Positions 7,410 through 64,000 of a stretch of 64,000 bases of DNA are shown here, piece after piece; positions within the stretch are counted from its first letter, which is position 1, and the number at the start of each line of letters is the position of its first letter. Below the pieces are notes generated by a model. That model ran no database searches, was not told where the DNA came from, and was given only the letters and a program-made list of their open reading frames with translations. Made by a program: the position numbers and the translations under genes. The DNA comes from an uncultured bacterium (GTDB lineage: Bacteria; Fidelibacterota; Marinisomatia; Marinisomatales; UBA1611): assembly GCA_943788175.1 (NCBI GenBank), contig CALSPG010000007.1, positions 346,258 through 410,257 on the forward strand. Direction: 5' to 3'.

Positions 7410-8290
7410 AACTAGTTTATCCATTAGTTCTTGCCTCTATTTTTTTTTCTTGCGCCAGCCCCACTGAACAAGAAAATATTAATGGTGGTAGTTCAGTAGA
7501 GTTATTACCTAACCTTAATTTAGAAGATGGTATTGAAGTTGTGACCTGGAACATTGAATTTTTTCCAAAATTGGGCCAAAGAACAATAGATTCTGTAAAA
7601 AAAATTATAAAAACTTTAAATGCAGATATTTACTGTTTGCAAGAAATATCAAGTCGATACTCATTTGAAGAACTTGCAGAATCACTAACTGAATATGATT
7701 TTGTAATTTCAGAAGACACAGATTATTTAAATTTAGTTGTATTATACAAAAAAAATGATTTTGTAGTAAGAAGCCAATCTAGCTTATTTACCAATAGCGT
7801 TTATGAGTTTGCTTATCGGCCGCCGTTAAGATTAGAAATGACATATCTGGGGCAAAATGCATTTGATTTCACTCTTATTAATATGCATCTAAAATGCTGT
7901 AATAATGGTTATGATAGAAGAAAAGCTTCCGTGGACATACTGCATGATTATTTGAATAGTTCTGTTCAGTCTGGTATCGTTAATCATATTGTGGTTGGAG
8001 ATTGGAATGATGATATATCCGATAGCTATAATCAAAATTCTTTTAATATCTTTTTAGAAGATAATGATAACTATAGGTATGTCACTTATGATAATGCTCA
8101 TTCAAATACAAATATTTATGACTCCTTTCCGAGTTACCCGAGTTTTATAGATCATATAATGATATCTGCAGATTTATTTGAAAAAGAGGGCTCGGGTGAT
8201 GTACAAACTATCAGACTTGGTGATTATATTTCTGGATATGATGAAATAATTTCAGATCATCGACCAGTAGTTTGGAGATTTATACCATGA
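7406..8290 (+). CDS. EEP-family (DNase I-like) nuclease lipoprotein
   Basis: Lipobox-like IFFSC; motifs TWNIEFF, CLQEI, HLKCC, VGDWND, IDHI, SDHRP. ATGA overlap with the previous gene. Confidence 0.85.
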   Translation: MKLVYPLVLASIFFSCASPTEQENINGGSSVELLPNLNLEDGIEVVTWNIEFFPKLGQRTIDSVKKIIKTLNADIYCLQEISSRYSFEELAESLTEYDFVISEDTDYLNLVVLYKKNDFVVRSQSSLFTNSVYEFAYRPPLRLEMTYLGQNAFDFTLINMHLKCCNNGYDRRKASVDILHDYLNSSVQSGIVNHIVVGDWNDDISDSYNQNSFNIFLEDNDNYRYVTYDNAHSNTNIYDSFPSYPSFIDHIMISADLFEKEGSGDVQTIRLGDYISGYDEIISDHRPVVWRFIP

Positions 8291-9261
8291 AAAATTCTCT
8301 GATATTTTGTTTTTTAGTGACTTTACAATTTAGTCTAGCTGATGAAATATCATATCTACGCTATTATGCAAATGAAAAAAATTTTATTGCTAACGTACCA
8401 ATGAAAGCAACAAATAGGAGGGGGTATGATCATCTTACAGCATATTTCAATGATCGAAATTTGCCTGTGAAGCTTGAATATTATATTTCCAATGGCAGTT
8501 TGAAAAAACGAGAAGTAATGGAATATAATAGCGATAAAGTTTTGATACAAAAAGGAGAGGTAAATAGTAAAGGTGAGTTTTTAAAATTAGTTGTATATAG
8601 CAATAATGAACCCTGGAGTATTGAATTTCAAAAATCTAATTATATTGATAAAGAAGAAATTGATTTTGTAGATCAACGTTCTACTTTTATCATTCCAAGG
8701 GGGAAGCAAGTTACCCAAATAATATTTGAGACGATTGATGGCATGAAGTATGGAAAAATTGAACTGGATTATGATTACTTAGGCTACCTTTCTGAGGAAA
8801 GGTGGAGGGCTATTCCCTCAGGTGAAATAATCAGAAGATTTAATTATAAATTTGATTTGATGTCTAATGTCACTCAAATTTGGGAGTTTGGTAAAAATAG
8901 TGAACTGATTTCTGAAGTTGCATTGGACATGGTTCCAGCGGACCAATTATATCGAACACCTCCTCCAAGAACAGGAAACGTGTTAGATGAATATGATATT
9001 ATTAGAAAAGAAATTAAAGAGAAGAGAATTATTTCACCAAACAACTCTTTTATTCCCAGTACGAAATTTGATCAACTAGTATTGAAATCTGGACAGTCCT
9101 TTGAAGTAGACTTTATTGGTACAAATACCAATGGGATTCAATTTAAATTATTAGATAATAATGGTCTTTTAACTATTCCATTTGATAATGTACGTTCTTT
9201 GACCTCGCGCATGGGGGATGTAATTTATCCAGAGGCAATCGAGTTTAGGAAAAGCTATTGA
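8287..9261 (+). CDS. hypothetical exported protein
   Basis: ORF 8272..9261. Likely start ATG 8287 overlapping the previous stop (MKNSLIFCFLVTLQFSLA signal peptide). Confidence 0.65.
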   Translation: MKNSLIFCFLVTLQFSLADEISYLRYYANEKNFIANVPMKATNRRGYDHLTAYFNDRNLPVKLEYYISNGSLKKREVMEYNSDKVLIQKGEVNSKGEFLKLVVYSNNEPWSIEFQKSNYIDKEEIDFVDQRSTFIIPRGKQVTQIIFETIDGMKYGKIELDYDYLGYLSEERWRAIPSGEIIRRFNYKFDLMSNVTQIWEFGKNSELISEVALDMVPADQLYRTPPPRTGNVLDEYDIIRKEIKEKRIISPNNSFIPSTKFDQLVLKSGQSFEVDFIGTNTNGIQFKLLDNNGLLTIPFDNVRSLTSRMGDVIYPEAIEFRKSY

Positions 9262-10037
9262 AAAGAAATTTTATAACCTTATTTTTATTTTTTAATGTAT
9301 CGTTTAGTCAAACATATCCTACCGGTCAAAACTATCCGCCACCAACAGATTTAATTACTGTCCCAACAGCTGCAACACTAATGCGAGGTAGTTTTTCTTT
9401 AGGAATGCGCATTCAAGATGAGGGTGGAATGATTCTAGGCTTGAGAGCTGGAATTACAGATAGGTTTCAATTTGGTTTATCATATGGTTCATCAAACTTA
9501 ATAGGTGATGATAGTCTACGTTGGTACCCAAGGCCAGAGGCTAATTTAAAATATATGCTTATGGATGAATCTATCACAACGCCTGGTATTGCTATGGGCT
9601 TAAATACACAGGGCTTCGGCAATTTTAATTTAGGTGACTCGCTTAACCGATATGATATGAAAGCCTATGGTTTTTATCTAAGTGCAAGTAAAAATTGGAA
9701 AACAGGATTAGGCAATTTAGGAATGCACGGTGGAGTCAGTTACAATTTTACTGAAACAGATGATGGCGATGAAGACCCAAATTTATTCTTTGGAATGGAC
9801 ATAGAAATCAATCCTGAATTTTCACTTTTAATGGAGTATAATGCAGCGCTTAATGAAAATGATATGACAACTGAAACATTGGCAATTAGTAGAGGTGGAT
9901 ATCTGAATGCTGCGATTCGTTGGACATTTGTCGAACATCTGCACTTAGAATTAAACTTTAATAATTTATTATTTGATGAAGATAAAGTGGATTACTTCAA
10001 GCGAGAAATTAAAATTATTTACATCGAATATTTTTAG
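9258..10037 (+). CDS. YjbH-like outer-membrane beta-barrel protein
   Basis: TTG start, signal peptide, DLITVPTAATL motif, beta-strand pattern, terminal IIYIEYF. Confidence 0.6.
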   Translation: MKRNFITLFLFFNVSFSQTYPTGQNYPPPTDLITVPTAATLMRGSFSLGMRIQDEGGMILGLRAGITDRFQFGLSYGSSNLIGDDSLRWYPRPEANLKYMLMDESITTPGIAMGLNTQGFGNFNLGDSLNRYDMKAYGFYLSASKNWKTGLGNLGMHGGVSYNFTETDDGDEDPNLFFGMDIEINPEFSLLMEYNAALNENDMTTETLAISRGGYLNAAIRWTFVEHLHLELNFNNLLFDEDKVDYFKREIKIIYIEYF

Positions 10038-10825: not shown

Positions 10826-11368
10826 ATGTCAAATTTAAAAGAGACAAAAATAAACTCTAAAGTTGTTTATGAAGGTGACTTTTTAGATGTTAGGAAAGAC
10901 AATGTTCTTCTTCCTAATGGAGAAAAAGGAAATCGTGAATGGATAAATCATCCTGGTGCTTCTGTCATAATACCTGTATTTCCTGATGGAAAAATTGCAT
11001 TAATTAGGCAATTTAGATATGCGGTCGGTTCTGAGTTCATTGAGCTGCCGGCGGGTAAATTAGACCTAGGAGAAAATCCTTTAGAATGCGCAAAAAGAGA
11101 GCTTGAAGAAGAAATTGGTTATAAATCAAATAATATAGAATTCATTGCAAATATTCATCCTGCAATTGGATTCGCAAATGAAAAAATGAACTTATTTTTG
11201 GCTACAGACTTAGTTCAAACAAAACAGAATAAAGACGCAGATGAATTCATTGATTTAATTCCAGTTAATCTAGAAAAAGCATTAGAACTAGTTTGGTCCA
11301 ATAAAATTACTGATGTAAAAACAATTATTGGAATATTATGGTATCAAAAAATTTATAATAATGATTAA
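10826..11368 (+). CDS. nudF: NUDIX hydrolase (ADP-ribose pyrophosphatase)
   Basis: Nudix box GKLDLGENPLECAKRELEEEIG; HPGA and RQFRYAV motifs. Confidence 0.85.
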   Translation: MSNLKETKINSKVVYEGDFLDVRKDNVLLPNGEKGNREWINHPGASVIIPVFPDGKIALIRQFRYAVGSEFIELPAGKLDLGENPLECAKRELEEEIGYKSNNIEFIANIHPAIGFANEKMNLFLATDLVQTKQNKDADEFIDLIPVNLEKALELVWSNKITDVKTIIGILWYQKIYNND

Positions 11369-13006: not shown

Positions 13007-13885
13007 CTAATGTTTTTTTACTATCGATATATCGACTGATCCAATACCAACTGAAATTTCAATATTCATTGATGACCAACGTTTCTGATAGTCTTTACTT
13101 TCATATCTTCCTTCTCCTATCGATACTAAATCTTTCACATTAACAGAACTAAGCATATTTTGATTTATTGATAGATTGATATTTGTATTTGAGGGAAGTC
13201 TTAGCTCTAGAGACCCAACGCTGACTTCAATTTTTACAATAGCATCGTTGTTCACTGATCCAGACATATCTATTTCTGCAGATCCCATTCCCACGTCAAA
13301 AGTATATTTAGAAGAATTAAAATTCCCTAGTCCGAAGCTATTAAAGTCAGAGATACCAGTAGAAATATGAATATTGTCACAACTAATAATATTGGGTTTC
13401 TTAGATACAAGAGTAACATCGCTTAACCCACAATCCATAATTAAATTAGAAATACGTATACCCGAAAAATCAATATCAACTTTACCTAATCCAAAGTTAA
13501 AATTCATATCAGTTTCAATTTTTGTTGGTAAATGAAAATTAATCTTATAATTATCATTTCCTTTATTAATCAAATTGCTTAGTGTGCTTGCGGAAGCACT
13601 AGAACTATTTGGTTTTACCTTTAGATCTAATCTTGCAATATTATTTTTATCTGAAAACTTTAACTGTGGCTCTGGCATTTCAGCGTTATAAAATATATCA
13701 CCGTTAACGACATATCGATTATTGCTTGGCCTAATTTTTAAATTTCCAATACTGCAATCAAAATAGACTCGAATAGCATCATATTTTTCTAATTTATATT
13801 GATATTCTAAAGACTTTATATTTTTTGAATCGCCATATATAAATAGGGATATAAGAAAAAAGGTTATTAGAAATCGAAGATTCAA
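13007..13885 (-). CDS. exported beta-solenoid ('toast rack'/LiaF-DUF4097-like) protein
   Basis: TTG start, signal peptide, repeated xxGxGxxxI strands (FGLGKVDID, VGMGSAEID, VGIGSVDI). Confidence 0.6.
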   Translation of the reverse strand: MNLRFLITFFLISLFIYGDSKNIKSLEYQYKLEKYDAIRVYFDCSIGNLKIRPSNNRYVVNGDIFYNAEMPEPQLKFSDKNNIARLDLKVKPNSSSASASTLSNLINKGNDNYKINFHLPTKIETDMNFNFGLGKVDIDFSGIRISNLIMDCGLSDVTLVSKKPNIISCDNIHISTGISDFNSFGLGNFNSSKYTFDVGMGSAEIDMSGSVNNDAIVKIEVSVGSLELRLPSNTNINLSINQNMLSSVNVKDLVSIGEGRYESKDYQKRWSSMNIEISVGIGSVDISIVKKH

Positions 13886-13897
13886 TTAAGTCTAATA

Positions 13898-15133
13898 TCA
13901 ATCAGTATATATTGATATAGGTCCATAATTAGATGATAGGTTGCAATTTATTGTACCTTCTTTTATTTTACCTAGTGCCACTACCTTGGCGGCTAAAAAC
14001 TCCTCTTCAAGTGGTATCTCTGAATTGATAGCACTTCTTGTTTCTAGATTATGGCATTGGGAGTTTATGTTATATGGTAAACCTGAAGGTAAGCGAATTG
14101 AAATTGAACCACGCTTTGTAATTAAATCAATTGAATGGTCAGTTAAAAATGAGTTGTATCCTTTATTAATTAGAATATCTCCAAATTCAGAGTTAACATT
14201 TACTCTACCAAAAAGATTTGCGCCATTTATATTTCCAAAATTTGTGTTACAATTAACATTGCCTATAATATTATTTAAATTAATTTGGCCCTTTCCTGTA
14301 AAAATTGTCATAGAACCATGTAGGTCATTGACGTCAATATTTCCAATATCAATTTTGGCGGTAAGGTCTGATTTACAATTGGTGATTTTAAGGCTACCTA
14401 CATTTATATTAATTTCGCAAAGATCACCTTCAAAGTTTGAAATTAGAGTTTCTCCTAATGTAGTACTAGATATGAGCTTTCCCCGAGCGCCATTAATGAT
14501 AATATTACCATTCTCAATATTTGTTATTGTGTTTGAACTACAATCAAATAGCTCTATGTCTCCACTAATTACATTTAATTGAACAGAACCAGATAGTTTC
14601 TTTGCGATAATATTACCGTCCTTAGTGTTAAAATTAATATTACCTGATAAGTTGGCTAATTTTGAATCGGTACTCTCTGATTTTATAGCCAATGTACCTC
14701 TTAGTTTACTTATTGATAAGTCACTATTTTTTATTTCACCTCTTATATTTGAATTAATTGGAAGGTGTAAATCGATTTTTGAAATGATTTTATGATCATA
14801 CTTATCTGATACTTTTTTTATACGGATTATTTTCTCATTTTCATCATGATAAACATTTATTTGACTATTTCGAAGTATAGAAATAGCATTTTTATTGCTA
14901 AGGGCATGGACCTTATTATCAATGATTAAATGTGTTCCTGACCCAGCATGGCCAATAATATTTATAACACCATTTATTTTTTCTAAAATAAATGTGTAAG
15001 CACCATTATCTAATACTTCATCAAAGCTATACTCGACTGCAGACCTATAAAGATTTTTTTCTTCTTCTTGAACAAAAATACCTTGAGAGAACGAATAAGA
15101 AAGGAGTAGCCATAAGCTTAGTGTGAATTTCAT
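13898..15133 (-). CDS. DUF4097-like beta-strand repeat protein
   Basis: Signal peptide; repeated TxxGxIxI/LxGxL units. Confidence 0.7.
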   Translation of the reverse strand: MKFTLSLWLLLSYSFSQGIFVQEEEKNLYRSAVEYSFDEVLDNGAYTFILEKINGVINIIGHAGSGTHLIIDNKVHALSNKNAISILRNSQINVYHDENEKIIRIKKVSDKYDHKIISKIDLHLPINSNIRGEIKNSDLSISKLRGTLAIKSESTDSKLANLSGNINFNTKDGNIIAKKLSGSVQLNVISGDIELFDCSSNTITNIENGNIIINGARGKLISSTTLGETLISNFEGDLCEININVGSLKITNCKSDLTAKIDIGNIDVNDLHGSMTIFTGKGQINLNNIIGNVNCNTNFGNINGANLFGRVNVNSEFGDILINKGYNSFLTDHSIDLITKRGSISIRLPSGLPYNINSQCHNLETRSAINSEIPLEEEFLAAKVVALGKIKEGTINCNLSSNYGPISIYTD

Positions 15134-15181: not shown

Positions 15182-16117
15182 TTACAGATTTGTTTCTGCA
15201 ACTGTCCTTTTTACAGCGTCCAGAGTATTAGCTAAGTCTGATTTTTCTTCATCTGTAAGACTGAATTCTATTATTTTTTCAATTCCACCAGATCCAATTA
15301 CTGTTGGCACGCCAATAAAGTAACCATCTATTCCAAATTCCCCTTCACAAAGTGCTGCGCTAGGGATAACTCTTTTTTTATCTTTTAGATAAGATTCAGC
15401 CATTTCAATAGCACACTGGGCAGGAGCATAAAATGCAGATCCATTACCGAACAGTTTTACCAGCTCTCCACCAGCAAATCTAGTTCTATCTTCGATTTCT
15501 TTAAGTCTTTTTGCATCAATCAAATCTGTTACTGGAACCCCTCCAATGGTTGCTAATCGTGTTATTGGCACCATACTATCTCCATGGCCTCCTAATACCA
15601 TACAACTAACATCTTGCGCAGAAAGTCCAGTTTCCATAGCTAAAAACGCGCGAAATCTACCTGAATCTAGAGCACCAGCCATGCCAACTACTTTGCTTTT
15701 ATCAAAACCAGATACTTTATGAAAAGCATATACCATAGCATCTAAAGGGTTTGATATAACAATTACAAACGCGTTTGGTGCATATTTTTTAACATTAGAG
15801 GCTACATCTTTTATAATACCAAGATTAATTGACATTAAATCTTCTCTATCCATTCCAGGTTTTCTTGGGATACCAGCCGTAATAATGACAACATCTGAAC
15901 CTTTAATGTCACTGTAATCCGAAGTCCCAGATAATTCAGAATCATACCCATCATGTGGTCTTAGTTGCATGATATCTAATGCTTTGCCTTTAACCATACC
16001 TTCGGATTGAGGAATATCAAATATAACCACATCGCCAAGTTCTTTCTGAGCGGCTATGAGAGCTAAGTTTCCACCAATTTGTCCACCACCGATCATTGTT
16101 AATTTTTTTCTACCCAT
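15182..16117 (-). CDS. mdh: malate dehydrogenase (LDH-like)
   Basis: IGGGQIGG, TAGIPRKPGMDREDL, ISNPLDAM, LDSGR, LGGHGD. Confidence 0.95.
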   Translation of the reverse strand: MGRKKLTMIGGGQIGGNLALIAAQKELGDVVIFDIPQSEGMVKGKALDIMQLRPHDGYDSELSGTSDYSDIKGSDVVIITAGIPRKPGMDREDLMSINLGIIKDVASNVKKYAPNAFVIVISNPLDAMVYAFHKVSGFDKSKVVGMAGALDSGRFRAFLAMETGLSAQDVSCMVLGGHGDSMVPITRLATIGGVPVTDLIDAKRLKEIEDRTRFAGGELVKLFGNGSAFYAPAQCAIEMAESYLKDKKRVIPSAALCEGEFGIDGYFIGVPTVIGSGGIEKIIEFSLTDEEKSDLANTLDAVKRTVAETNL

Positions 16118-16496: not shown

Positions 16497-16946
16497 TTAC
16501 TTATCTTCTTTTTTAGGTTTAGCTGCTGGTTTAGCTGCTGGTTTAGCTGCTGGTTTAGCTGCTGGTTTAGCTGCTGGTTTAGCTGCTGGTTTAGCTGCTG
16601 GTTTAGCTGCTGGTTTAGCTGCTGGTTTAGCTTTCGCAATTTGAATATTTTGAACTTCCAAGTTAGTATACCATTGTCTATGACCATTTTTACGAGCATA
16701 CCCTTTTCGTCGCTTCTTTTTGTAGACCAAAATTTTTCTCTCTCTGCCATGATCAATAACTGTAGCGGTAACTTTTGCACCAGCTACTTTTGGACTGCCA
16801 AAACTTGTAGATCTTCCATCATGAACCATTAACACATCATCCAGAATAATTTTCTTGCCTTCTTCTAATGATAATTTTGGTACACAAAGCTTCGAACCTT
16901 TTTCAGCTTTGAATTGTTTACCTGATATATTTACTATTGCATACAT
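16497..16946 (-). CDS. rplU: 50S ribosomal protein L21 with C-terminal (AKPA)n tail
   Basis: [13 protein letters not shown]...[19 protein letters not shown]. Start moved to ATG 16946. Confidence 0.96.
16516..16632. repeat. perfect 12-bp tandem repeat (ggtttagctgct) x9 plus 9 bp, encoding AKPA repeats in L21
   Basis: Read directly from the sequence. Confidence 0.97.
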
Positions 16947-16975: not shown

Positions 16976-18505
16976 TTAAGCATCCTTATCAAGTGACATT
17001 TCATTTGTTATGTCTTTTCCTGATCTTGATTTAATAAATCTAAACTCATCCCTTCTTAAATCTTTGTTCGTTTCTATCTTGATATGAACAAAATTTTTCC
17101 ACATTAATCCTCTTAAAATATTTTTTTTATCATTTTCAATATAATGTGCATTTTCTTTGTGCAATTGTAAAATAATTCTTAAGTCTCTGTGTTTACTTTT
17201 ATATCTTCTAAGCCAGTGCTCGATTCTGGTAATGAGTGCTTCTTTTGAAATAATTCTTCCTGACCCGAAACATGAAGGACATTCCTCGCTCATAGAATCT
17301 AACAAACTGACCCGTATTCTTTGTCTTGTCATTTCTAACAACCCAAACTCTGTTATTGGTGATACTGCTACTTTGGCTCTATCCTTTCTAAGTTCTTTTC
17401 TAAGTTCATGATATATTTTTTTTCTGTTTTCTTCAAGACGCATATCTATAAAGTCTATGACAACTAATCCGGAAAGATCTCTTAGTCTTAATTGTCTTGC
17501 TACTTCTCGAGCCGCTTCAAGATTAATTTTTAGTGAATTATCTTCATGCAGTTTTTTTCCAACAAATTTTCCGCTGTTCACATCTACAACTACCATTGCT
17601 TCTGTTTTTTCAATAATTAGATAGGCACCGCTTTTTAACCAGGCTTTTGGTCTCATTAATTTTTCTATTTCTGATTCGATACCAAAACTTTCGAAAAGCG
17701 GTAGTTTTAGTTTATACATTTCAAGACGATCGGCGAGACTAGGCGAAACTTCTTCAAGATATTTTTGTGTTTTTTTGAAGAGTCTTTTTGAGTCAATTAT
17801 AATTTTTTCAACATCTGGTGTAAGTAGATCTCTAACAACACTTGAAGCTGTTTCTAAGTCTTCGTAAACCAATGCTGGTGCATTTTCATTTTCAGCAACC
17901 TTTGCTACTTTATTCCAGCTATTTAAAAGAGAATTAAAATCATTTACTATATGCTCTTCACTTTTTCCTTCTGCAACAGTCCGAATGATAATTCCAGTAT
18001 CTTTTTGTCTAAGACTCTTAGCAATCTTTTTTAATCGCCTTCTCTCAAATTTGTCCCATATTTTTTTTGATATACCAATGTAGTTTTCGTGAGGGACTAA
18101 AACTAATAACCTTCCCGGAATCGCTACTTCTGTGGTAACTCTAGGCCCTTTTCCTGCAAAAGGCTCCTTGATTACCTGAACAAAGATTTCTTGATTTGTT
18201 CGAAGGTCAACTTCAATATTATCCGGTTTACCTCTCTTTTTTTTATTCTCTTCTGAATCGTCTTCTATTATGTAATCTGGGTTTGCAATTTCTGAAAAAG
18301 GTAAAAAGGCATTTAAGTCATATCCAATATCAACAAATGCTGCTTGCATACCAGGCAAAACATTTTCGACTTTGCCTTTGTAGATATTCCCAACCATACG
18401 CTGTTTATCTTGACGTTCAATATAAACTTCGACGATTTTGCCATCTTCTTGAATAGCAATTCTCGTTTCGCCCATACTCTCATTAATAAAAATCTCTTTT
18501 TTCAT
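16976..18505 (-). CDS. rng: Rne/Rng family ribonuclease (RNase G-like)
   Basis: VGNIYKGKVENVLPGMQAAFVDIG S1 domain, VDVNSG, RQLRLRDLSGLVVIDFIDM, CPSCFGSG. Confidence 0.92.
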   Translation of the reverse strand: MKKEIFINESMGETRIAIQEDGKIVEVYIERQDKQRMVGNIYKGKVENVLPGMQAAFVDIGYDLNAFLPFSEIANPDYIIEDDSEENKKKRGKPDNIEVDLRTNQEIFVQVIKEPFAGKGPRVTTEVAIPGRLLVLVPHENYIGISKKIWDKFERRRLKKIAKSLRQKDTGIIIRTVAEGKSEEHIVNDFNSLLNSWNKVAKVAENENAPALVYEDLETASSVVRDLLTPDVEKIIIDSKRLFKKTQKYLEEVSPSLADRLEMYKLKLPLFESFGIESEIEKLMRPKAWLKSGAYLIIEKTEAMVVVDVNSGKFVGKKLHEDNSLKINLEAAREVARQLRLRDLSGLVVIDFIDMRLEENRKKIYHELRKELRKDRAKVAVSPITEFGLLEMTRQRIRVSLLDSMSEECPSCFGSGRIISKEALITRIEHWLRRYKSKHRDLRIILQLHKENAHYIENDKKNILRGLMWKNFVHIKIETNKDLRRDEFRFIKSRSGKDITNEMSLDKDA

Positions 18506-39713: not shown

Positions 39714-41729
39714 TTGCTCTCAAACATTGAAAAAATAATTTTTATCATAATTGCTATCAGTGCATTCGGCGCTTCTTATGTTACCTTTGGTAAAATGTTT
39801 AAAGTCATTAGCGTTGGTTCTCAGCCAATTGATTGGAAAAAAGCACTATGGAATTTTCCAAAAGGCTTGAAAGTATTTATTAGTCAAAACACCCTTTTCA
39901 AGACCAGGCCTATTGTTGGTTTTATTCATGCTCTAGTAGCATGGGGTTTTACGCTTTATTTAATCGTGAATGTCGTTGACGTTTTATACGGCTTCATACC
40001 TGACTTTCATTTTTTTCCAAATTATTTGATTGGCAAGGTTTATCGGCTTTTTGTTGATATCTTTACAGTGTTAGTTCTTGTCGGAGTTCTTTATTTTTTA
40101 ATAAGAAGATTTATTTTAAATGATAGCAGGTTACTAATAAATGAACCAGTAATGCTAAGCGAGGAAGCAAGAATTGGCATGAGAAATGACTCGTTGTTAG
40201 TTGGGTTATTTATTTTTGCGCATGTGGGTGCACGATTTCTATCAGCAAGCTTTGAGATTGCAAAAAATGGAGTTGATTATTTCCAGCCAGCAGCGACAAC
40301 AGTTTCCTTATTATGGTCTAATTTATCTTCAGATAATATTATTCTATTTGAGCATATTAGCTGGTGGGTCGCGCTGGGGTTAATATTGGGATTTTTACCT
40401 TATTTCCCATTCAGCAAGCACGCTCATTTATTTATGGGGCCACTGAATTACATGGTTAAGGAAGAAAGGTCTTCCATGGCAGCTATAGAAACAATTGATT
40501 TTGAAGATGATTCAATTGATCAATTTGGGGCAGGGCAAATCAATCATCTACCGCAATCTAACCTCTTGGATGCCTATGCATGTATACAATGTAGTCGTTG
40601 TCAGGATGCTTGTCCTGCTTATGAAACAGGTAAGGAGTTATCGCCATCGGCACTAGAAATAAATAAGCGCTATTTTTTAAATAACCATTTGGATGAGTTC
40701 ATCGACGGCTCAATACCTGACTCTTCTATTACAAATCATTTGCTAACAGATGAAGCGGCTTGGAGTTGTACTACATGTGGGTATTGCGTTGAGGTATGTC
40801 CAGTTGGAAACGAGCCAATGATTGATATCTTAAGGGCTCGTCAAAATCTCGTCATGATGGAAAGTAAATTTCCTCAAGAAGCAATGGAGACTTTTGATAA
40901 AATAGAAAACTATGGTAACCCATGGGGCCTTAGTCCAAATGAAAGAGAAGTATGGATGGAAGGTCGTGAAGTTCCACTTATGAGAGAAAAAAAGGAAGCT
41001 GAAGTATTATATTGGGCTGGATGTGCAGGTGCATATGATAGTAGAGGCAAAGAAATTTCACAGGCAGTTGTAGACGTGCTCAAAGAAGCCAAAGTCGATT
41101 TTGCATCTTTAGGAAATGAAGAAACATGTACAGGTGATTCAGCTAGGAGGATAGGAAATGAATACTTATTTCAAACCATGGCAGAAAAAAACTTGGAAAC
41201 ATTTGGTAAATATAAATTTAAAAAAATTGTTACCCAATGTCCGCACTGCTTTACAACGTTAAAAAATGATTACGCAGAACTCGGAGCTGATCTTGAAGTT
41301 GTACACCACTCCCAATATATAGGTCAGTTAGTCACTGAAGGAAAGATAAATCCAAAAGCATGGATGGATGAAGATGTTACGTATCATGATGCATGCTATC
41401 TTGGCCGTCACAATGATGAATATGATGCCCCAAGAGACGTGATTCAATCAATCATGAAAGATGGCAAACTCAAAGAAATGGAAAAATCTAGAGAAGAGAG
41501 CTTTTGTTGTGGTGCTGGCGGAGGAAATATGTGGTATGAAATAAAAACTGGTGAAAGAATAAATCATAACCGGTTTAAACAAGCCGCTGAAACTGGAGCA
41601 ACTACAGTTGCAACTGCATGCAACTTTTGTAACATAATGATGGAAGATGGAATGAAAGTAACGGGGAACGATGAAAATATGAAAGTAATGGATATTGCAG
41701 AACTTGTATCAAAAAGTTTAGCGAGGTAG
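39714..41729 (+). CDS. membrane-bound Fe-S oxidoreductase (FadF/HdrD-like; candidate ETF:quinone oxidoreductase)
   Basis: N-terminal TM domain with FSKHAH, two CxxCxxCxxxCP ferredoxin motifs, CCG domains (TQCPHC, YHDACYLGR, CCGAGGG); lies next to etfBA. Confidence 0.85.
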   Translation: MLSNIEKIIFIIIAISAFGASYVTFGKMFKVISVGSQPIDWKKALWNFPKGLKVFISQNTLFKTRPIVGFIHALVAWGFTLYLIVNVVDVLYGFIPDFHFFPNYLIGKVYRLFVDIFTVLVLVGVLYFLIRRFILNDSRLLINEPVMLSEEARIGMRNDSLLVGLFIFAHVGARFLSASFEIAKNGVDYFQPAATTVSLLWSNLSSDNIILFEHISWWVALGLILGFLPYFPFSKHAHLFMGPLNYMVKEERSSMAAIETIDFEDDSIDQFGAGQINHLPQSNLLDAYACIQCSRCQDACPAYETGKELSPSALEINKRYFLNNHLDEFIDGSIPDSSITNHLLTDEAAWSCTTCGYCVEVCPVGNEPMIDILRARQNLVMMESKFPQEAMETFDKIENYGNPWGLSPNEREVWMEGREVPLMREKKEAEVLYWAGCAGAYDSRGKEISQAVVDVLKEAKVDFASLGNEETCTGDSARRIGNEYLFQTMAEKNLETFGKYKFKKIVTQCPHCFTTLKNDYAELGADLEVVHHSQYIGQLVTEGKINPKAWMDEDVTYHDACYLGRHNDEYDAPRDVIQSIMKDGKLKEMEKSREESFCCGAGGGNMWYEIKTGERINHNRFKQAAETGATTVATACNFCNIMMEDGMKVTGNDENMKVMDIAELVSKSLAR

Positions 41730-57928: not shown

Positions 57929-59218
57929 CTAACACAATATTAATTTAGATTTTAAAATTGTTTCACTAGATACCTTGAAAGTTTTGTGAAGCATCAACTT
58001 TGCGTTTTCTAGCTTTTTAATGTTTTCACCAAATAATGTATACACCTTTTCACCTTTTTTTACAGTTTCCCCGATCTTTACATTAAATTTGATTCCTGCC
58101 GTATAGTCTAGAAGGTCTTTATCTCTTCGCCTTCCGCACCCCATTTCAACTAGAGCCCATCCTATCTTTTCAGTATCCATAGAACTTATATATCCATCTC
58201 TATCTGAACAAATATAAAGCTCATTCTTGATACGGGATCCACTCATTTGTAATTGTTCAAAATTTCCTCCTTGCGCGACGATTAACTCTTCAAACTTTTT
58301 TAAAGCGGTTCCATTCTTAATAGTTTCGAGCATTTTCTTTTTTGCTTCATTTTTGTTATCAGCTTTTTTACTTTGAAGTAAAATTTTTGATCCAAGTTCT
58401 AAACTAAGTTCAATTAAATCATTTGGACCATCGCCGTTTAAACAATTAATAGACTCAATAATTTCACATCTCAACCCAGCATACCTACCCAAAGGTTGCG
58501 ACATATTTGAAAAAGTTATATCCGTTTTTATTTTAAAAGCGCTTCCTATTTTTTTAAGTTCAGCCGCAAGTATTTTTGCCTCAGAAACCGTTTTCATAAA
58601 AGCGCCATTCCCAACTTTTATATCCATTATAAGTCCATCAAGTCCTTCAGCTATTTTCTTACTCATTATAGAACTGCAAATAAGTGGCATTGATGGTATC
58701 GTCCCTGTTAAGTCTCGTATCGAATATATTTTTTTATCCGCAGGGCAAATTTCTGATGATTGACTTATAATACCATAACCAATGTTTTGTATTTGGCTTT
58801 CAAAATCTTTTTCATTAATGGATGTTTGAAAATTGGGAATTGATTCTAACTTATCAATCGTACCACCCGTGTAAGCTAGTCCTCTGCCTGCAATCATTGG
58901 AATGATAATGCCCAGGGATGATAATATGGGAGCTAAAATAAAAGAAATTTTGTCACCAATGCCGCCAGTACTATGCTTATCTGCAATATAATTACCAGGG
59001 CTATTAAATTTAAATCTTTTCCCAGAATTAACCATTGATTCAACTAAAGAAAAAGTCTCTAAGTCACTCATTCCGTTAAAATAAATTGCCATTAACAGCG
59101 CAGATAGCTGGCAATCATCAATTTTATTTTCTACTGTTCCTTCGACGAACCATGCAATTTCTTTTGCATTAAGTTCAAATCCATCTCGTTTTTTTTCTAT
59201 TAATTTTGCAGGTATCAT
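57929..59218 (-). CDS. pdp: pyrimidine-nucleoside/thymidine phosphorylase
   Basis: DKHSTGGIGDK, GRGLAYTGGTIDKLESIP, SIMSKK, DIKVGNGAFMK. Confidence 0.92.
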   Translation of the reverse strand: MIPAKLIEKKRDGFELNAKEIAWFVEGTVENKIDDCQLSALLMAIYFNGMSDLETFSLVESMVNSGKRFKFNSPGNYIADKHSTGGIGDKISFILAPILSSLGIIIPMIAGRGLAYTGGTIDKLESIPNFQTSINEKDFESQIQNIGYGIISQSSEICPADKKIYSIRDLTGTIPSMPLICSSIMSKKIAEGLDGLIMDIKVGNGAFMKTVSEAKILAAELKKIGSAFKIKTDITFSNMSQPLGRYAGLRCEIIESINCLNGDGPNDLIELSLELGSKILLQSKKADNKNEAKKKMLETIKNGTALKKFEELIVAQGGNFEQLQMSGSRIKNELYICSDRDGYISSMDTEKIGWALVEMGCGRRRDKDLLDYTAGIKFNVKIGETVKKGEKVYTLFGENIKKLENAKLMLHKTFKVSSETILKSKLILC

Positions 59219-60594
59219 TATTTGTCTTTTTTCTTTTTGAAAATAGTTGGCAGTTTTATTCCGATTGGGGCATTCTCTCTAACGGTATGGATTAATAAAT
59301 AAATAGCAATTAATAGAATAATTAAGTTTGGAGACCACATTCCTACAGCTGGAGATAAAAATGTTCTATCTGCCATTTCTTCACCGCCTATTAGAAGCAC
59401 GTAATAAATAAGAAAAAATCCAAAACTCAATCCAGTACTTATCGCAAAACCTCCTTTTTTACTCATTACACCTAATGGTGCTCCAAGTAAAACAAATAAA
59501 ATACAGGCTACAGGGATAGAAAACTTTTTATGTATTTCAACACCATATTTGTTTTGGCTTTTTTTATAGCTCCTAATCAAATTGAATTCGTTCTTCAATT
59601 GTCGCTCAAGATTTTTTATCCTTTTTTCTTTTTTAATTAATTGAGCTTTTGATAATGAATTTTGATTTTTAATACTATCTAAAGCATTTACAATCATTAT
59701 TTCCCCTTCTTTGACAGTATTTGGAACTGTACTGTCGCCAATAGTTCTATAAAAATTTCCTGACAATCGTTTGTAAACAATTCTAAGACGCTTTTCTTGT
59801 AATCATTAACTTTATTCACGATCATTGGTATGGTCATTTCACGATCGGTCCGCTTTGAAGAATCTCTTCTGCTTAGGAGGAGATCACTTTGCGGGGATTA
59901 CTATTTTATGGGTTTCAAAAATAATTCTTCTGTAGTTTGAAAAATCATCATTTTCAATCTCATGAATCTCTCCATCATATAACGTAAGAAGGAATGCATC
60001 TGAAAGAGTGTTCAATCTACCCGATTTAGCATGAATACTTGTTTGTTCTTTTTGTTTTCCTTTTGAGAAAATTCTAACATCTGTCATTCAAATCATCTAT
60101 TTTCCCTCCGATAATCATACTGTATGAAGGTAGATCATCAATGAAAACTCCAGGCTCAATATTCATACCTGGACGTTTTTTGATAAATATCTCCTGATAA
60201 AGTCGTGCTTTGAAATTCATTTCAGGCAATATATAATTATTGAAAAATACTAGTACAAGGGCTATGGTTATTCGCCAAACATAAGTGGGGCACGAATAAT
60301 TGTTGAAAAGCTAATACCAGAAGCTCTCATTGCGTTGATCTCGTTGTCTTCTGATAATCTACCAAATGCCATTAGAGTCGCTAGAAGTACTGCCATAGGT
60401 ACTGACAACGCTATTATCCATGCAAGGTTTAAAAATAGGTATTCGAGGATTGTTAATAAATCCAAACCTTTCCCCAGGAATCTATCAATCGCCCTGAGTA
60501 AAAAATTTACAAATAATACGAAAGTTATCATTAAAAGAGAAAAAATGAATGGCAAAATAAGCTCTTTTAAAAAGTATCTATATAAAAGTCTCAC
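59218..60594 (-). CDS. lptF: LptF/LptG family LPS export permease, broken by several indels (probably sequence errors)
   Basis: GTG 60594 starts xRLLYRYFLKEL...LSVPMAVLLATLMAFGRLSEDNEINAMRASGIS. Middle fragments NNYILPEMN and LTLYDGEIHE; C-terminal VEIHKKFSIPVACILFVLLGAPLG...WSPN. The pieces lie in different frames. Confidence 0.8.
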
Positions 60595-60707: not shown

Positions 60708-60782
60708 GGTGGGTGTAGCTCAGCTGGTTAGAGCACCTGGTTGTGGCCCAGGAGGCCGTGGGTTCAAGTCCCATCACTCACC
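60708..60782 (+). tRNA. tRNA-His (GTG), G-1 encoded
   Basis: Acceptor GTGGGTG/CACTCAC, anticodon arm CCTGG-TTGTGGC-CCAGG, T arm GTGGG-TTCAAGT-CCCAT. Confidence 0.95.
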
Positions 60783-60792
60783 CAAAAAAATT

Positions 60793-60867
60793 CGGGGTGT
60801 AGCGTAGTCCGGTTATCGCGCCTGCTTTGGGAGCAGGAGGTCGGGAGTTCGAATCTCTCCACCCCGA
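60793..60867 (+). tRNA. tRNA-Pro (TGG)
   Basis: Acceptor CGGGGTG/CACCCCG, anticodon arm CCTGC-TTTGGGA-GCAGG, T arm GGGAG-TTCGAAT-CTCTC. Confidence 0.95.
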
Positions 60868-60984
60868 CGCTATTAAGCCTTGTTTCTCGAGTAGAAATGA
60901 GGCTTTTGTCTTTTTACCTGTTTTAGTCTGATTTCCTTAAAAATACCCTAAAAAGCACTAAATGCACTGGTAATACACTGGTCA
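60832..60984 (+). repeat. direct repeat copy 1: tRNA-Pro 3' end + terminator + CACTGG-repeat arm
   Basis: Matches 62389-62544 with 3 substitutions and 3 single-base indels. Confidence 0.95.
60875..60915 (+). terminator. intrinsic terminator after tRNA-Pro (repeated at about 62432-62472)
   Basis: aagccttgtttct-cgagt-agaaatgaggctt hairpin followed by a T-rich tract. Confidence 0.75.
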
Positions 60985-61027
60985 TTTTTAGTATGAGTTC
61001 TTTATTACATCTGTTAGGTATTGTGCT

Positions 61028-61342
61028 CTAATCATTATAATGATTACTTCCCCATTCCCCGAGTTTTTTAAACACAGGTAAAAGTGTTTCACCTTTTTTT
61101 GTTAGTGAATATTCAACTCTAGGAGGTATTTCCGCAAAGATTTTTCTGCTGATTATATTTTGCGCTTCTAAATCTCTAAGTTCTCTTGTTAGCATATTTT
61201 TACTTATACCCTCGATGCTCCGACTTAATACACCAAAGCGATTAATGCCATGAGATAATCTCATGAATATAATTGGTTTCCATTTTCCTCCAATTACCTT
61301 CATTGCAAAGGTGATTGGACAATTTTTATGTTCTTTTTTCAT
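61028..61342 (-). CDS. HxlR family winged-helix regulator
   Basis: NCPITFAMKVIGGKWKPII, ISKNMLTRELRDLE, IPPRVEYSLT. Confidence 0.92.
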   Translation of the reverse strand: MKKEHKNCPITFAMKVIGGKWKPIIFMRLSHGINRFGVLSRSIEGISKNMLTRELRDLEAQNIISRKIFAEIPPRVEYSLTKKGETLLPVFKKLGEWGSNHYND

Positions 61343-61452
61343 TCCTTCTTCTTCTAATAGTCCTAAAAATATAACTATATAATAAAATAGTGCCTACTTT
61401 ACAAAAATAAATATACAAAATAATTTAGGCCTATCAAATAAAGGATTAAAAA

Positions 61453-61689
61453 ATGAGTTTAAAAAAAACACTTCAAACAAGCCCTTACATAATAAAAGGT
61501 GAGAAAAAAAAATATGCATTGTGTGCATGTGGCCTATCATCAAATCAACCATTTTGTGATGGCAGTCATAAGAGTACAGACATTACTCCAATAATTTTTG
61601 AAAATGAAAAAGAAGGCAATATCGCTTTGTGTGGATGTAAAGGCACAGGTAATTCTCCATTCTGTGATGGCAGCCACACCAAACTCTGA
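61453..61689 (+). CDS. CDGSH iron-sulfur domain protein (two CDGSH motifs, MiNT/CISD3-like)
   Basis: CACGLSSNQPFCDGSH and CGCKGTGNSPFCDGSH. Confidence 0.92.
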   Translation: MSLKKTLQTSPYIIKGEKKKYALCACGLSSNQPFCDGSHKSTDITPIIFENEKEGNIALCGCKGTGNSPFCDGSHTKL

Positions 61690-61713
61690 TAAAATAAATA
61701 AGGAAATAATAAA

Positions 61714-62355
61714 ATGAAAAAATATTTAAGTGTATTTGCGTTACTTACAATAGTATTAAGTAGTTGCGCTAAAAAAAGTGATTCAAAGCCAATAGTTAAA
61801 AATATAGAAATGAATACAATTAAGAAAGGAGGTTATAAAGTTGATAGTTTTGAATCAAAGTTGGTTTGGAAAGGAAGACAATTATCATCAAAAGAGCATG
61901 ATGGGACTCTAGACATTAGTAGTGGTTCAATAGAAATTGATAAATCGGGAAGAATTTTTGGTGATATTAAAATTGATATGAAATCAATTAGTACCTCTGA
62001 TTTAGAGGGGGAATGGAAAGACAAACTGGATGGTCATTTAAAAAGCCCAGACTTTTTTAATGTAAAAGGTTTTCCAACCGCAACAGTAACATTTAAGGGT
62101 AATCAAAATAAAACTACTAATGGAGAAATTAATTTTGAAGGTGATTTAACTATTAAAGGCATTACTCAGATTACAAAATTTTCAGCGAAGATAAATCAAA
62201 TAGGAGATAAGGTCATTGCAACAGCATCAATTTCGTTTGATAGGTCAGAGTATGATATAAGGTATGGATCTGGAAAGTTCTTTGATAATTTAGGGGATAA
62301 ATTAATTTATGATGAAATTACTGCTGAGGTTTCTATAGTTGCTAAAATGTTATAA
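61714..62355 (+). CDS. YceI family lipoprotein
   Basis: Lipobox LSSC; HLKSPDFFNV..FPTA, GDLTIKGIT, FDRSEYDIRYGS. Confidence 0.9.
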   Translation: MKKYLSVFALLTIVLSSCAKKSDSKPIVKNIEMNTIKKGGYKVDSFESKLVWKGRQLSSKEHDGTLDISSGSIEIDKSGRIFGDIKIDMKSISTSDLEGEWKDKLDGHLKSPDFFNVKGFPTATVTFKGNQNKTTNGEINFEGDLTIKGITQITKFSAKINQIGDKVIATASISFDRSEYDIRYGSGKFFDNLGDKLIYDEITAEVSIVAKML

Positions 62356-62388
62356 TTGCTAATGAAAATATTAATAAAATGATTAATC

Positions 62389-62544
62389 AGCAGGAGGTCG
62401 GGAGTTCGAATCTCTCCACCCCGACGCTATTAAGCCTTGTTTCTCGAGAAGAAATGAGGCTTTTTGTCTTTCTTACCTGATTTAGGCTGATTTCCTTAAA
62501 AATACCCTAAAAAGCACTAAATCGCACTGGTAATACACTGGTCA
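62389..62544 (+). repeat. direct repeat copy 2 (att-like; begins with the 3' 36 nt of tRNA-Pro)
   Basis: agcaggaggtcgggagttcgaatctctccaccccgacgctattaagcc...cactggtaatacactggtca. Confidence 0.95.
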
Positions 62545-62973
62545 GTTTTTGGCTTTAAAAATGTTAATTAATTTTAATAATGCTATAATTTCAATGGCGA
62601 CAATGATGATATGAAGAATTAAATCTGTGGTGGGATCGACAGGCGCATTTGCTAATGGATAAAGAGGATCAATTATTGTTTCTTGTCCTTCCCGAAAAAC
62701 ATTCATAACAAACATAATGATAAATAGTTTAACATCTTGTGATAGCATTATTAAAAAAGAAATTACAGCCATAGTGCCAGTCCTGCCCGCAAATTCATAA
62801 ATCAGGTTTTTATTTGGAATACCCTCGGTTGTAATCCCTGATGCCGAAACTGCGTCGATATCAAAGTAAAATTGATATGTCTGCTGAATGACAATCATAG
62901 TTAATAAAATTTGTACAATATTTATCCAGATCGGTATAGGACTTGTTTTAAAATGGTTAATTAAGGATTTCAT
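62542..62973 (-). CDS. hypothetical membrane protein (about 4 TM segments)
   Basis: Hydrophobic helices; divergent from the second hxlR. Its TGA stop lies inside repeat copy 2. Confidence 0.7.
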   Translation of the reverse strand: MKSLINHFKTSPIPIWINIVQILLTMIVIQQTYQFYFDIDAVSASGITTEGIPNKNLIYEFAGRTGTMAVISFLIMLSQDVKLFIIMFVMNVFREGQETIIDPLYPLANAPVDPTTDLILHIIIVAIEIIALLKLINIFKAKN

Positions 62974-63060
62974 TTTTTATATTTAGTTTAATTTGTTACC
63001 TAAAGTTATTAATGATAGATACTTTTAGTAACTTATATATTATCAAATAGTCAAATAGTA

Positions 63061-63076
63061 GTTACTTCAAAGTAAC
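63061..63076. promoter_or_regulatory. 7-2-7 inverted repeat, probable HxlR operator
   Basis: gttactt-ca-aagtaac; related site gatacttttagtaac at 63018-63032. Confidence 0.6.
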
Positions 63077-63096
63077 AATTAAGAGGATTTAATATT

Positions 63097-63420
63097 ATGA
63101 AACACAATAAGTGTCCTTTGACATATGCTTTAACTATTGTAGGTGGGAAATGGAAACCGATTATTATATCTCATTTAAAAAAATCACCTAAACGATTCGG
63201 AAAACTTGATGCTCTAATTCCAACAATTTCAAGAAAAGTATTGTCTACCCAATTATCAGAACTAGTTGGACACAAAATGTTAAATAGGGTTTCATATCCT
63301 GAAACACCCCCAAGAGTAGAATATTCATTGACAGATAAAGCAAAAGAACTAGTTCCAATTTTCGAAACACTTGCAGAATGGGGATATGAATTAGTTAAAA
63401 AAAATGAAAATAAAGAATAA
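63097..63420 (+). CDS. HxlR family winged-helix regulator
   Basis: KCPLTYALTIVGGKWKPII, ISRKVLSTQLSEL, TPPRVEYSLT. Confidence 0.92.
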   Translation: MKHNKCPLTYALTIVGGKWKPIIISHLKKSPKRFGKLDALIPTISRKVLSTQLSELVGHKMLNRVSYPETPPRVEYSLTDKAKELVPIFETLAEWGYELVKKNENKE

Positions 63421-63446
63421 TTTTACTTCACATTCTTTATTAGATC

Positions 63447-63486
63447 AAAAGCACTAAATGCACTGGTAATACACTGGTCATTTTTA
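63447..63486 (+). repeat. direct repeat copy 3 (arm only, 40 bp identical to 60951-60990)
   Basis: aaaagcactaaatgcactggtaatacactggtcattttta. Confidence 0.92.
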
Positions 63487-63516
63487 ATAGGATAATTATT
63501 TGTAGATTTGATAAGT

Positions 63517-64000
63517 ATGAAGAAATATCTATTCATAGTTTTATTAATTGGCTTTTGGGGATGTAATATTCTTCAAAAAAAAGATATTATTGCACTTTTT
63601 GACTATGAGCCTATTAATTATGATGGCAGTATAAATGCATTGATTGAAATTCCTGCCGGCACTTTAAAAAAATGGGAGTTTAACAAAGTAAGTGGATTAA
63701 TTGAATTAGAAATAATTAATAATAAGCCAAGAATAATAGATTATTTGGGATATCCTGCCAACTATGGAATGATTCCCAAAACATTATTAGCAAAAAAAAA
63801 TGGGGGAGATGGTGACCCTTTAGATATTATAGTTATAGGGCCTCCGCAAGAAAAAGGGAGTGTTGTTAAATGCAAAATTATTGGAGTACTCCATCTCATC
63901 GACAATTTAGAGAAGGACGATAAACTAATTGCGGTATTGCATAATTCAACATTAAATAATATCAATGGCATTAAAGAATTAGATGCCAATTATAATGGGA
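63517..64000 (+). CDS. ppa: family I inorganic pyrophosphatase with lipoprotein signal peptide (3'-truncated; not in the ORF track)
   Basis: Manual translation: MKKYLFIVLLIGFWGC...IEIPAG..KWE...YPANYGMIPKT...DGDPLDI...DDKLIAV, open to the window end. Confidence 0.88.
   Translation, partial: MKKYLFIVLLIGFWGCNILQKKDIIALFDYEPINYDGSINALIEIPAGTLKKWEFNKVSGLIELEIINNKPRIIDYLGYPANYGMIPKTLLAKKNGGDGDPLDIIVIGPPQEKGSVVKCKIIGVLHLIDNLEKDDKLIAVLHNSTLNNINGIKELDANYNG

Follow-up and report, generated by a model that had tools for sequence, protein, structure and literature searches.

The window considered here, meaning the whole 64,000-nucleotide stretch taken from contig CALSPG010000007.1 (C7) of an uncultured bacterium, closes with a tRNA-Pro(TGG) gene followed by a tandem array of small gene modules, or cassettes, which are separated by repeats of the 3′ part of that tRNA and of the DNA behind it. 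The source genome, G000, comprises 2.27 Mb in 12 contigs with 33% G+C and its host belongs to the Marinimicrobia (SAR406). Its tRNA-Pro(TGG) gene is the only copy in the whole genome and stands beside a tRNA-His(GTG) gene, a pairing that also precedes the array in the related genomes G006 and G065. The first cassette encodes an HxlR-type regulator, a CDGSH iron-sulfur protein and a YceI-like lipoprotein, the second a membrane protein that matches no Pfam or NCBIfam family together with another HxlR-type regulator, and the third begins with a lipoprotein pyrophosphatase (Table 1). This division into modules had been proposed in an initial annotation made from the letters alone and is borne out by the open reading frames (ORFs) and by Pfam and NCBIfam. 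The final base of the window is also the final base of contig C7, so the array seen there is cut off.

Table 1. Features at the right end of the window, with copies of the island terminator at loci L011 and L012
Feature	Position	Strand	Evidence or remark
tRNA-His(GTG)	60709..60783	+	ARAGORN; Rfam 67.1 bits; conserved left neighbour of the island
tRNA-Pro(TGG)	60793..60868	+	ARAGORN, Rfam; attL side of the island
Anticodon stem-loop CCTGC TTTGGGA GCAGG	60821..60837	+	presumed core site / crossover region
Unit copy 1 (tRNA 3′ part, terminator, P′ arm)	60832..60984	+	attL form: tRNA plus right arm
Terminator hairpin after tRNA-Pro	60875..60905	+	13 pairs, then T run
Box 1, three tandem CACT repeats ending CACTGGTAATACACTGGTCA	60955..60984	+	12-copy alignment; sharp right edge of unit
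Cassette 1, HxlR-type regulator, 104 aa	61028..61342	-	ORF; Pfam HxlR 1.7e-28 on C8 twin; NCBIfam
Cassette 1, CDGSH iron-sulfur protein, 78 aa	61453..61689	+	ORF; zf-CDGSH 6.9e-23 on C8 twin
Cassette 1, YceI-like lipoprotein, 213 aa	61714..62355	+	ORF, Pfam, NCBIfam
Unit copy 2, 'short' form	62389..62544	+	tRNA from position 40, terminator, spacer, box; no P arm
Terminator hairpin of unit copy 2	62432..62462	+	hairpin search
Box 2	62514..62544	+	final 3 nt double as stop codon of the opposite-strand membrane-protein gene
Cassette 2, membrane protein, 143 aa	62542..62973	-	ORF
Cassette 2, second HxlR-type regulator, 107 aa	63097..63420	+	ORF, Pfam, NCBIfam
Unit copy 3, box alone, 40 nt	63447..63486	+	100% identical to end of copy 1
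Lipoprotein inorganic pyrophosphatase	63508..64000	+	cut by contig end; full gene C8:10103-10729; Pyrophosphatase 5.4e-34
Terminator CCCCACATTCGTGGGG copies	L011:10746-10773, 11287-11314, 13777-13802, 14570-14597, 15965-15992, 16893-16920, 17267-17291		
Terminator CCCCACATTCGTGGGG copies	L012:3715-3740, 5417-5442, 6373-6400		

The repeats that delimit the cassettes are real. The first copy, a unit of ~153 bp, starts at the last base of the anticodon loop, and the second matches it at ~96% identity over ~160 nt (62389-62549 against the stretch from 60832; E 7e-67), far beyond chance; the last 40 nt of the unit return, unaltered, as the third copy. The left edge of copy 2 after cassette 1 is seen identically in four contexts, and the box-only joint after cassette 2 has the same truncated form in five contigs. 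The initial annotation had taken copies 2 and 3 for duplicated attachment (att) sites, a description that has to be modified, as both are incomplete ones.

The complete form of the unit, found elsewhere in the array, is ~230 bp long and attP-like. A left (P) arm of 59 bp, which contains CACTGGTAAAG, is followed by the tRNA from position 27/28, and hence with its whole anticodon stem-loop, to the tRNA 3′ end, and then by a right (P′) arm made up of the terminator hairpin, a spacer of ~55 nt and a 30-bp box of CACT repeats ending in CACTGGTAATACACTGGTCA; beyond this point 12 of 12 aligned copies abruptly cease to be similar. Long copies start at tRNA position 27/28 and short ones where the loop ends on its 3′ side, at position 40, and most complete copies combine the longer start with the additional 59-bp left arm. 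All 11 genome copies of CACTGGTAATA lie within the island, on the + strand. Two arms bearing tandem repeats at 10-11-bp spacing thus flank a tRNA stem-loop core, which is the layout of a lambda-type attP; by this analogy the CACT boxes are candidate arm-type integrase-binding sites, and crossover would presumably take place in the anticodon stem-loop. Folding of the P′ arm, the box and the P arm is no stronger than that of shuffled sequences (z -0.39 to 0.40), and in Rfam only the two tRNAs are recognized, along with a sub-threshold tmRNA-like match on the tRNA fragment, the arm corresponding to no known RNA. A reading of the box as a transposon end, prompted by its terminal ...CA, does not stand, since 11 of 11 copies share the same strand and the box has no inverted partner.

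The array continues on a second contig of the same genome, C8, which carries no tRNA gene. Nine further same-strand matches to a query of tRNA plus arm lie between C8:8351 and 27529, and with the full 234-nt unit as query 12 pieces, all on the + strand, are found in C8:1-32000, the last at 28708; the tail of C7 holds three, also all +. The island, measured from the tRNA to C8:28708, spans at least ~21 kb, and its right end lies beyond that point. Searches for the right edge with a RarA-like protein and with the tRNA flank matched 2 and 3, respectively, of nine genomes of the genus, and among these there was no contig running from the tRNA to the core genome. Complete P-core-P′ units start at C8:12274, 14599 and 19617, and at C8:27434-27529 a P arm and tRNA part are followed by a diverged arm. 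The modules C8:12274-14826 and C8:14599-19850 are accordingly bounded by complete units and carry no integrase, while an integrase-bearing element stands in tandem with them, an arrangement characteristic of cis-mobilizable elements.

The assembly also holds two versions of the start of the island, since the C7 tail and C8:8351-10595 are near-identical and the latter lacks cassette 2. C8:8351-10080 matches window positions 60819-62549 at 99.5% and C8:10042-10595 matches 63447-64000 at 99.6%, so that the order tRNA, cassette 1, cassette 2, pyrophosphatase on C7 is set against integrase element, cassette 1, pyrophosphatase on C8. Cassette 1 is virtually identical in both, nearly all differences lying in the spacer of its right joint.

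Most modules between joints contain one to three genes and no integrase. Their genes lie on both strands, with terminators and promoter-like leaders of their own, and the products include redox regulators, inhibitors and hydrolases secreted by the type IX system, and lipoproteins. Six lipoprotein genes that lie in tandem at L011:160-4197 have in common 40-50 nt of near-identical signal-peptide coding sequence (MKKYLFIVLL...), which the pyrophosphatase gene at window position 63517 also carries. Type IX secretion sorting domains end otherwise unrelated cargo genes (Kunitz, GH16, Kazal, esterase), and the DNA encoding them is 68-84% identical (L011:12018-12271 against L011:19361-19614; L012:3413-3694, 8311-8596); judged by this similarity, it would offer further homology for recombination.

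The initial annotation had stated that no recombinase gene is present. This holds for the window, as contig C7 has no match to the tyrosine recombinase family PF00589 (serine recombinases and transposases were not searched for), but not for the island, as an integrase gene lies on C8 at 7401-8327. Its product has Phage_int_SAM_5 and Phage_integrase domains in Pfam, and 23 bp separate the end of the gene from the unit at C8:8351, the element abutting cassette 1. It scores far below the models for XerC, XerD and integron integrases (48.7 and 31 bits against NCBIfam cut-offs of 265 and 435 for the last). It is accompanied by a small Arc-like protein (PHROGs) and by two proteins shared with G021, one an 83-aa zinc-finger protein and the other of 179 aa. 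In a survey at E <= 1e-30, seven of 54 genomes of the family carry the integrase and none of the eight other genomes of the genus does. It lies directly before a tRNA-Pro 3′ fragment in G021, G020, G011 and G065, and the integrase beside the same arm, which the initial annotation had called for, is thus found repeatedly. G065 preserves a complete 8.4-kb element, bounded by an intact tRNA and a tRNA fragment, whose genes encode cargo lipoproteins, the Arc-like protein, the integrase and a primase/helicase split into three pieces. A replication module was found only in this relative, there being none in what is assembled of the G000 element.

A second member of the integrase family, 52% identical and with an internal stop, lies on contig C2 of G000 (40442-41266; L046/L052). 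It was considered as a part of the tRNA-Pro island and rejected, there being no tRNA-Pro fragment or unit nearby. About 10 kb away, at C2:51441-51472, is a 32-nt 3′ fragment of tRNA-Arg(CCG), the gene for which is on C1, and together these look like another island split by the assembly. On C5, which has no PF00589 match, the last 32 nt of tRNA-Val(TAC) (L053:1429-1503) are repeated 10 kb downstream (L053:11438-11469), and this may be another integrase-less island.

Searches of the rest of the genome and of its relatives, likewise proposed in the initial annotation, showed that the array is not peculiar to G000. Seven related genomes carry parts of the unit that are not tRNA-derived, namely five of the eight others in the genus (G002, G003, G004, G006 and G007) and two of the three in a second genus, g3. 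In G006 thymidine phosphorylase, LptF/G, tRNA-His and tRNA-Pro are followed by a 13-kb array of other modules, with no integrase among ORFs of at least 70 aa. Over 5.8 kb the flank of this locus shares 77.1% identity with the window; by comparison, cassette 2 has a G006 counterpart at 97.5% identity over 1033 bp, and a module of GNAT and DUF2200 genes one at 96.3%. Exchange of modules between species thus far outpaces the divergence of the core genome.

A scan of metagenome assemblies with 18 nt of the box gave at least 140 stretches, and at least 64 loci (264 kb) among the matches listed after removal of five nested duplicates; the limits of this listing apply to the counts that follow. An integrase is matched, weakly, on one of the 64 contigs. 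One contig, L102, equals C8:11222-19676 at 99.87% identity and spans four units, which shows that the array is no artefact. Another, L096, has five of the modules of G000 at 92-96% identity in a different order, and cassette content and order differ throughout the genomes and contigs that carry units. Nine intact copies of tRNA plus arm lead into eight different first cassettes. Cassette 1 follows the tRNA in G000 and a complete unit in L096, with homology beginning exactly at the core. In L104 cassette 2 comes directly after the tRNA, which fits either a later arrival of cassette 1 or its loss in that lineage; the first of these is in keeping with the earlier proposal that the newest cassette lies next to the tRNA.

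Parts of C8:1-10000 are contained in 18 marine metagenome runs from seven studies, in every case as assembled contigs. Word depths of 2.97, 0, 0.9 and 2.32 in the integrase bin (7338-8004) for runs X1, X3, X6 and X7, set beside 52.9, 232.8, 90.8 and 11.1 in the cassette 1 bin (8672-9338), fit an integrase element that is scarce in comparison with the cassettes, contig depth being a poor measure. Metagenome contigs break exactly at units and terminators, and one contig of X6 runs leftwards from cassette 1 into the 5′ part of a tRNA-Pro. The depth of 8.4 for the pyrophosphatase contig in X6 against 86 for cassette 1 is at best suggestive of presence/absence variation, given the poor measure that contig depth provides. 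Contig joints through the repeats were considered as possible rearrangements and not counted, the sides of such joints being only 20-36 nt long and the comparison extending no further than C8:20000.

An intact tRNA at one edge with direct repeats of its 3′ part downstream, a content that varies between relatives and includes cassettes closer to one another than the core genomes are, and a cognate tyrosine integrase tied to the same att sequence are features of an additive flexible genomic island, and all of them are present here. The tRNA-anchored, uniformly oriented array of integrase-less modules recognized in the window is thus confirmed and extended. We think it probable, though by no means assured, that the island was built at tRNA-Pro(TGG) with joints made by the integrase and reshuffled later by recombination. 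Under this model, elements of ~8 kb, equipped with an N-terminally extended tyrosine integrase, a small Arc-like protein and cargo and, in at least one relative, with a primase/helicase too, would integrate at the anticodon stem-loop, restore the tRNA and shift older material downstream. The joints between successive insertions would be the attP-like units, each made of P arm, tRNA 3′ part, terminator and P′ arm with its box, the last a putative protein-binding site. Modules with complete units on both sides could be excised and re-inserted by an integrase acting in trans, supplied by a rare integrase-bearing element at the same site. Recombination at the short linkers (tRNA part, box, and island terminator with leader) would then reshuffle modules within and between species.

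The contribution of such reshuffling was gauged from 36 stretches of homology (300 bp or more, with identity of 88% or higher) that the G000 island has with other sequences. Linker windows, comprising the units and the terminator repeats, make up 8.7% of the island and contain 49 of the 65 internal breakpoints, although these stretches are not independent because some of the contigs come from one population. The island-specific terminator accounts for 23 of these breakpoints, the box for 19, the tRNA part for four, the spacer for two and the P arm for one. The spread of crossovers over several conserved segments indicates that site-specific integration has been overlaid by homologous recombination or gene conversion. 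The terminator in question, CCCCACATTCGTGGGG followed by a T run, has 12 copies in C8:10.7-24.4 kb and two elsewhere in the genome, and stands in near-identical form after many unrelated island genes. It is often succeeded by a promoter-like leader, GGATGATGGGTA, of which all four genome copies are in the island and which, we take it, resembles the -33/-7 promoter type of Bacteroidota.

A number of observations weigh against this model of an integrase-built island. The 23 breakpoints at the terminator lie outside the att unit, so that much of the shuffling looks like homologous recombination. Of 126 box copies, collected among the matches listed with the box itself as search pattern, 12 are cut by contig ends; the other 114 divide into 24 complete units, 12 attL-like or integrase-adjacent copies, four short, 18 intermediate and 56 box-only ones, a predominance that plain tandem integration does not predict, although the box-only class is over-sampled by the use of the box as bait. 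The P′ arm is unlinked to the cassette behind it: over the 86 nt of terminator and spacer, the five informative pairs, which share the downstream but not the upstream sequence and come from different sources, have a median identity of 84.3%, against a background of 84.1% (n=471) and 88.5% within one source (n=28). This tells against the earlier supposition that each incoming unit brought the same arm. The right end of the integrase element overlaps the 3′ end of the integrase gene and, by eye and unaligned, is unlike the 59-bp P arm of the cassettes; the C8 integrase can at most be supposed to act on those arms. The integrase itself is frameshifted in the assembly, two ORFs on C8 being split by one extra T in a T run, and the copies in G065 and on C2 carry stops. 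Intact 377-aa homologues of the C8 protein, at 89% identity, also cover a 71-aa ORF just upstream of the integrase ORF. Two contigs of run X7 end and begin exactly at this T run (L011:7385-7391), which would fit variation of its length in the population or a k-mer break. The LptF/G permease gene beside tRNA-His (window 59218-60594, - strand) is also broken, with at least two out-of-frame stretches and many stops, its counterpart in G006 being a single 455-aa ORF; either this normally essential gene has become a pseudogene or the assembly contains indel errors, and the integrase frameshift may likewise be an assembly error rather than decay. The excised circles and empty sites expected earlier did not appear: neither the P′ box nor the P arm has a match in viral contigs (two scans), and none of the 64 metagenome contigs listed, assembled contigs only, shows the terminal overlap of a circle. 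The depth figures derive from contigs of at least 95% identity, in which diverged integrase elements go uncounted, and the genomes are metagenome-assembled genomes (MAGs), which often lose such elements.

Several of these points would be accommodated by decay and homologous recombination alone, whereby the modules are what remained of several elements after deletion of their integrase, no integrase ever moves them again, and all later shuffling is RecA-type exchange or gene conversion at the linkers. On contig C178 of G003 the integrase gene, beside a unit, is reduced to its last ~165 bp, which shows that decay of integrase-bearing elements also contributes, and the stops and frameshifts of the two copies in G000 and of that in G065 tell the same way. 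The breakpoints fall at three types of linker, one a non-att terminator, and the arms are mosaics that are alike by source rather than by cassette. In addition, the switch between the two versions in G000 lies inside the tRNA fragment and terminator shared at the right joint of cassette 1, a joint with half of the core missing. However, cassettes such as C8:12503-14598 have kept both the P′ arm and the 59-bp P arm without any fragment of an integrase, and that P arm, again by eye and unaligned, looks unlike the end of the integrase-bearing element on the integrase side. The 30-bp box is nearly invariant across 44 upstream and 48 downstream contexts amid varied surroundings, which suggests selection for function, and the eight different first cassettes fit repeated entry at the tRNA. 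Decay and homologous recombination as the whole explanation are a possibility to be taken seriously, albeit one that we regard as rather unlikely.

A more far-reaching proposal is that the island represents a gene-capture system of SAR406, in which the 30-bp box, set behind a terminator where each self-expressing module ends, would be the actual recombination site, and a lambda-like integrase, present in a minority of cells, would insert, delete and exchange single-gene modules across species from box to box. We consider this doubtful; if true, it would amount to an analogue of the integron derived from a tRNA att site, with simple double-stranded sites in place of folded attC sites.

Improbable, too, in our estimation is a scheme in which the CACT box rather than the tRNA core is the working cassette site, with an attC-like role at the 3′ end of modules for the integrase or another recombinase, the tRNA-derived parts merely recording the arrival of the first box. 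It would explain why box-only copies form the largest class, why their left edges are alike across the 44 upstream and 48 downstream contexts of the 54 copies with enough flank, and why the box is so frequent a breakpoint. Cassette-specific sequence does begin right after ...GGTCA, the arms left of the box are unlinked to the cassette on its right, and cassette 2 lies between two boxes in at least five left and at least four right contexts. Against this, the box is built of direct repeats spaced 10-11 bp apart, which gives it the look of an arm-type or accessory site and not of a core with inverted half-sites, and it lacks a fold (z ~0). About seven of the 54 box-only copies resemble chance matches in unrelated DNA, and the over-sampling noted above inflates the class. 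Boxless terminator repeats are breakpoints equally often. Moreover, insertion of cassette 2 from box to box would leave the spacer to the left of the box unchanged, and it is in this spacer that the two G000 versions differ.

That the array is an artefact of mis-joined or duplicated MAG contigs, a refutation foreseen in the initial annotation, is scarcely credible: one assembly does contain 99.5%-identical versions of the same stretch (the C7 tail and C8:8351-10595) and assemblies do break at these repeats, but arrays recur in independent assemblies, including L102, L059, L096, L087 and the seven related genomes.

The principle of additive islands at tRNA genes is already known from Alteromonas (PMC4898812), from Methylophilaceae, where flexible genomic island fGI-2 of 'Ca. 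Methylopumilus' has recurring 20-bp repeats of tRNA-Lys (PMC10872708), and from Prochlorococcus. In both Alteromonas and Methylophilaceae, partial-tRNA repeats and near-identical cassettes in different species are described (PMC4898812, PMC10872708). As far as these accounts go, the SAR406 island resembles theirs in its tRNA hotspot, partial-tRNA repeats, variable content and near-identical cassettes across species, and differs in its ~230-bp two-armed attP-like unit, its modules of one to three genes and its boundaries of box and terminator/leader. Tycheposons are presented as elements with a tyrosine recombinase and integration, replication and cargo modules, which use few tRNA sites, tRNA-Pro(tgg) among them, stack in tandem between partial tRNAs, are rarer than the islands and leave remnants (10.1101/2020.12.28.424599). 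The G065 element shares the module plan described there for Prochlorococcus, and the tRNA-Pro(tgg) site, tandem stacking, rarity of integrase elements and remnants are common to both systems. Unlike tycheposons as so described, the present island has integrase-less modules with complete two-armed sites and a box boundary, and the likeness drawn here is one of features. In full-text searches on Marinimicrobia/SAR406 and genomic islands, neither such an island nor any account of how these bacteria acquire and swap genes was apparent from titles and the openings of abstracts.

Arrays of small modules are also typical of integrons and of integrase-less attC clusters (CALINs). In common with these, the island has small modules, sites in one orientation, a sharp right edge 3′ of the module and, for the most part, no recombinase. 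The comparison with an integron drawn in the initial annotation is nevertheless not supported, as the integrase is not of the IntI type (48.7 bits against 265), the sites lack an attC-like fold and the array is anchored at a tRNA. Likewise, its genes on both strands, each module with its own terminators and promoter-like leaders, differ from cassettes under a common promoter. A further comparison is with the cis-mobilizable and integrative elements of Streptococcus thermophilus (CIME/ICESt), in which integrase-less elements reportedly lie between att sites of a tandem integrative element; just so, the modules here are flanked by att sites of an adjoining integrase-bearing element. Those cases are said to involve one or two large elements at the end of a protein gene and conjugative transfer, unlike the dozen or more tiny modules found here at a tRNA; no transfer genes were seen in the island.

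What is new is the SAR406 host, the ~230-bp two-armed unit as a cassette joint in two genera, and the boundaries of box and terminator/leader; the general principle being known, the value of the island lies in this detail and in the new host. SAR406 bacteria are abundant in the dark ocean and uncultured, and the island gives a sequence-level picture of how they gain and exchange genes, with linkers regular enough to make the mechanism directly testable.

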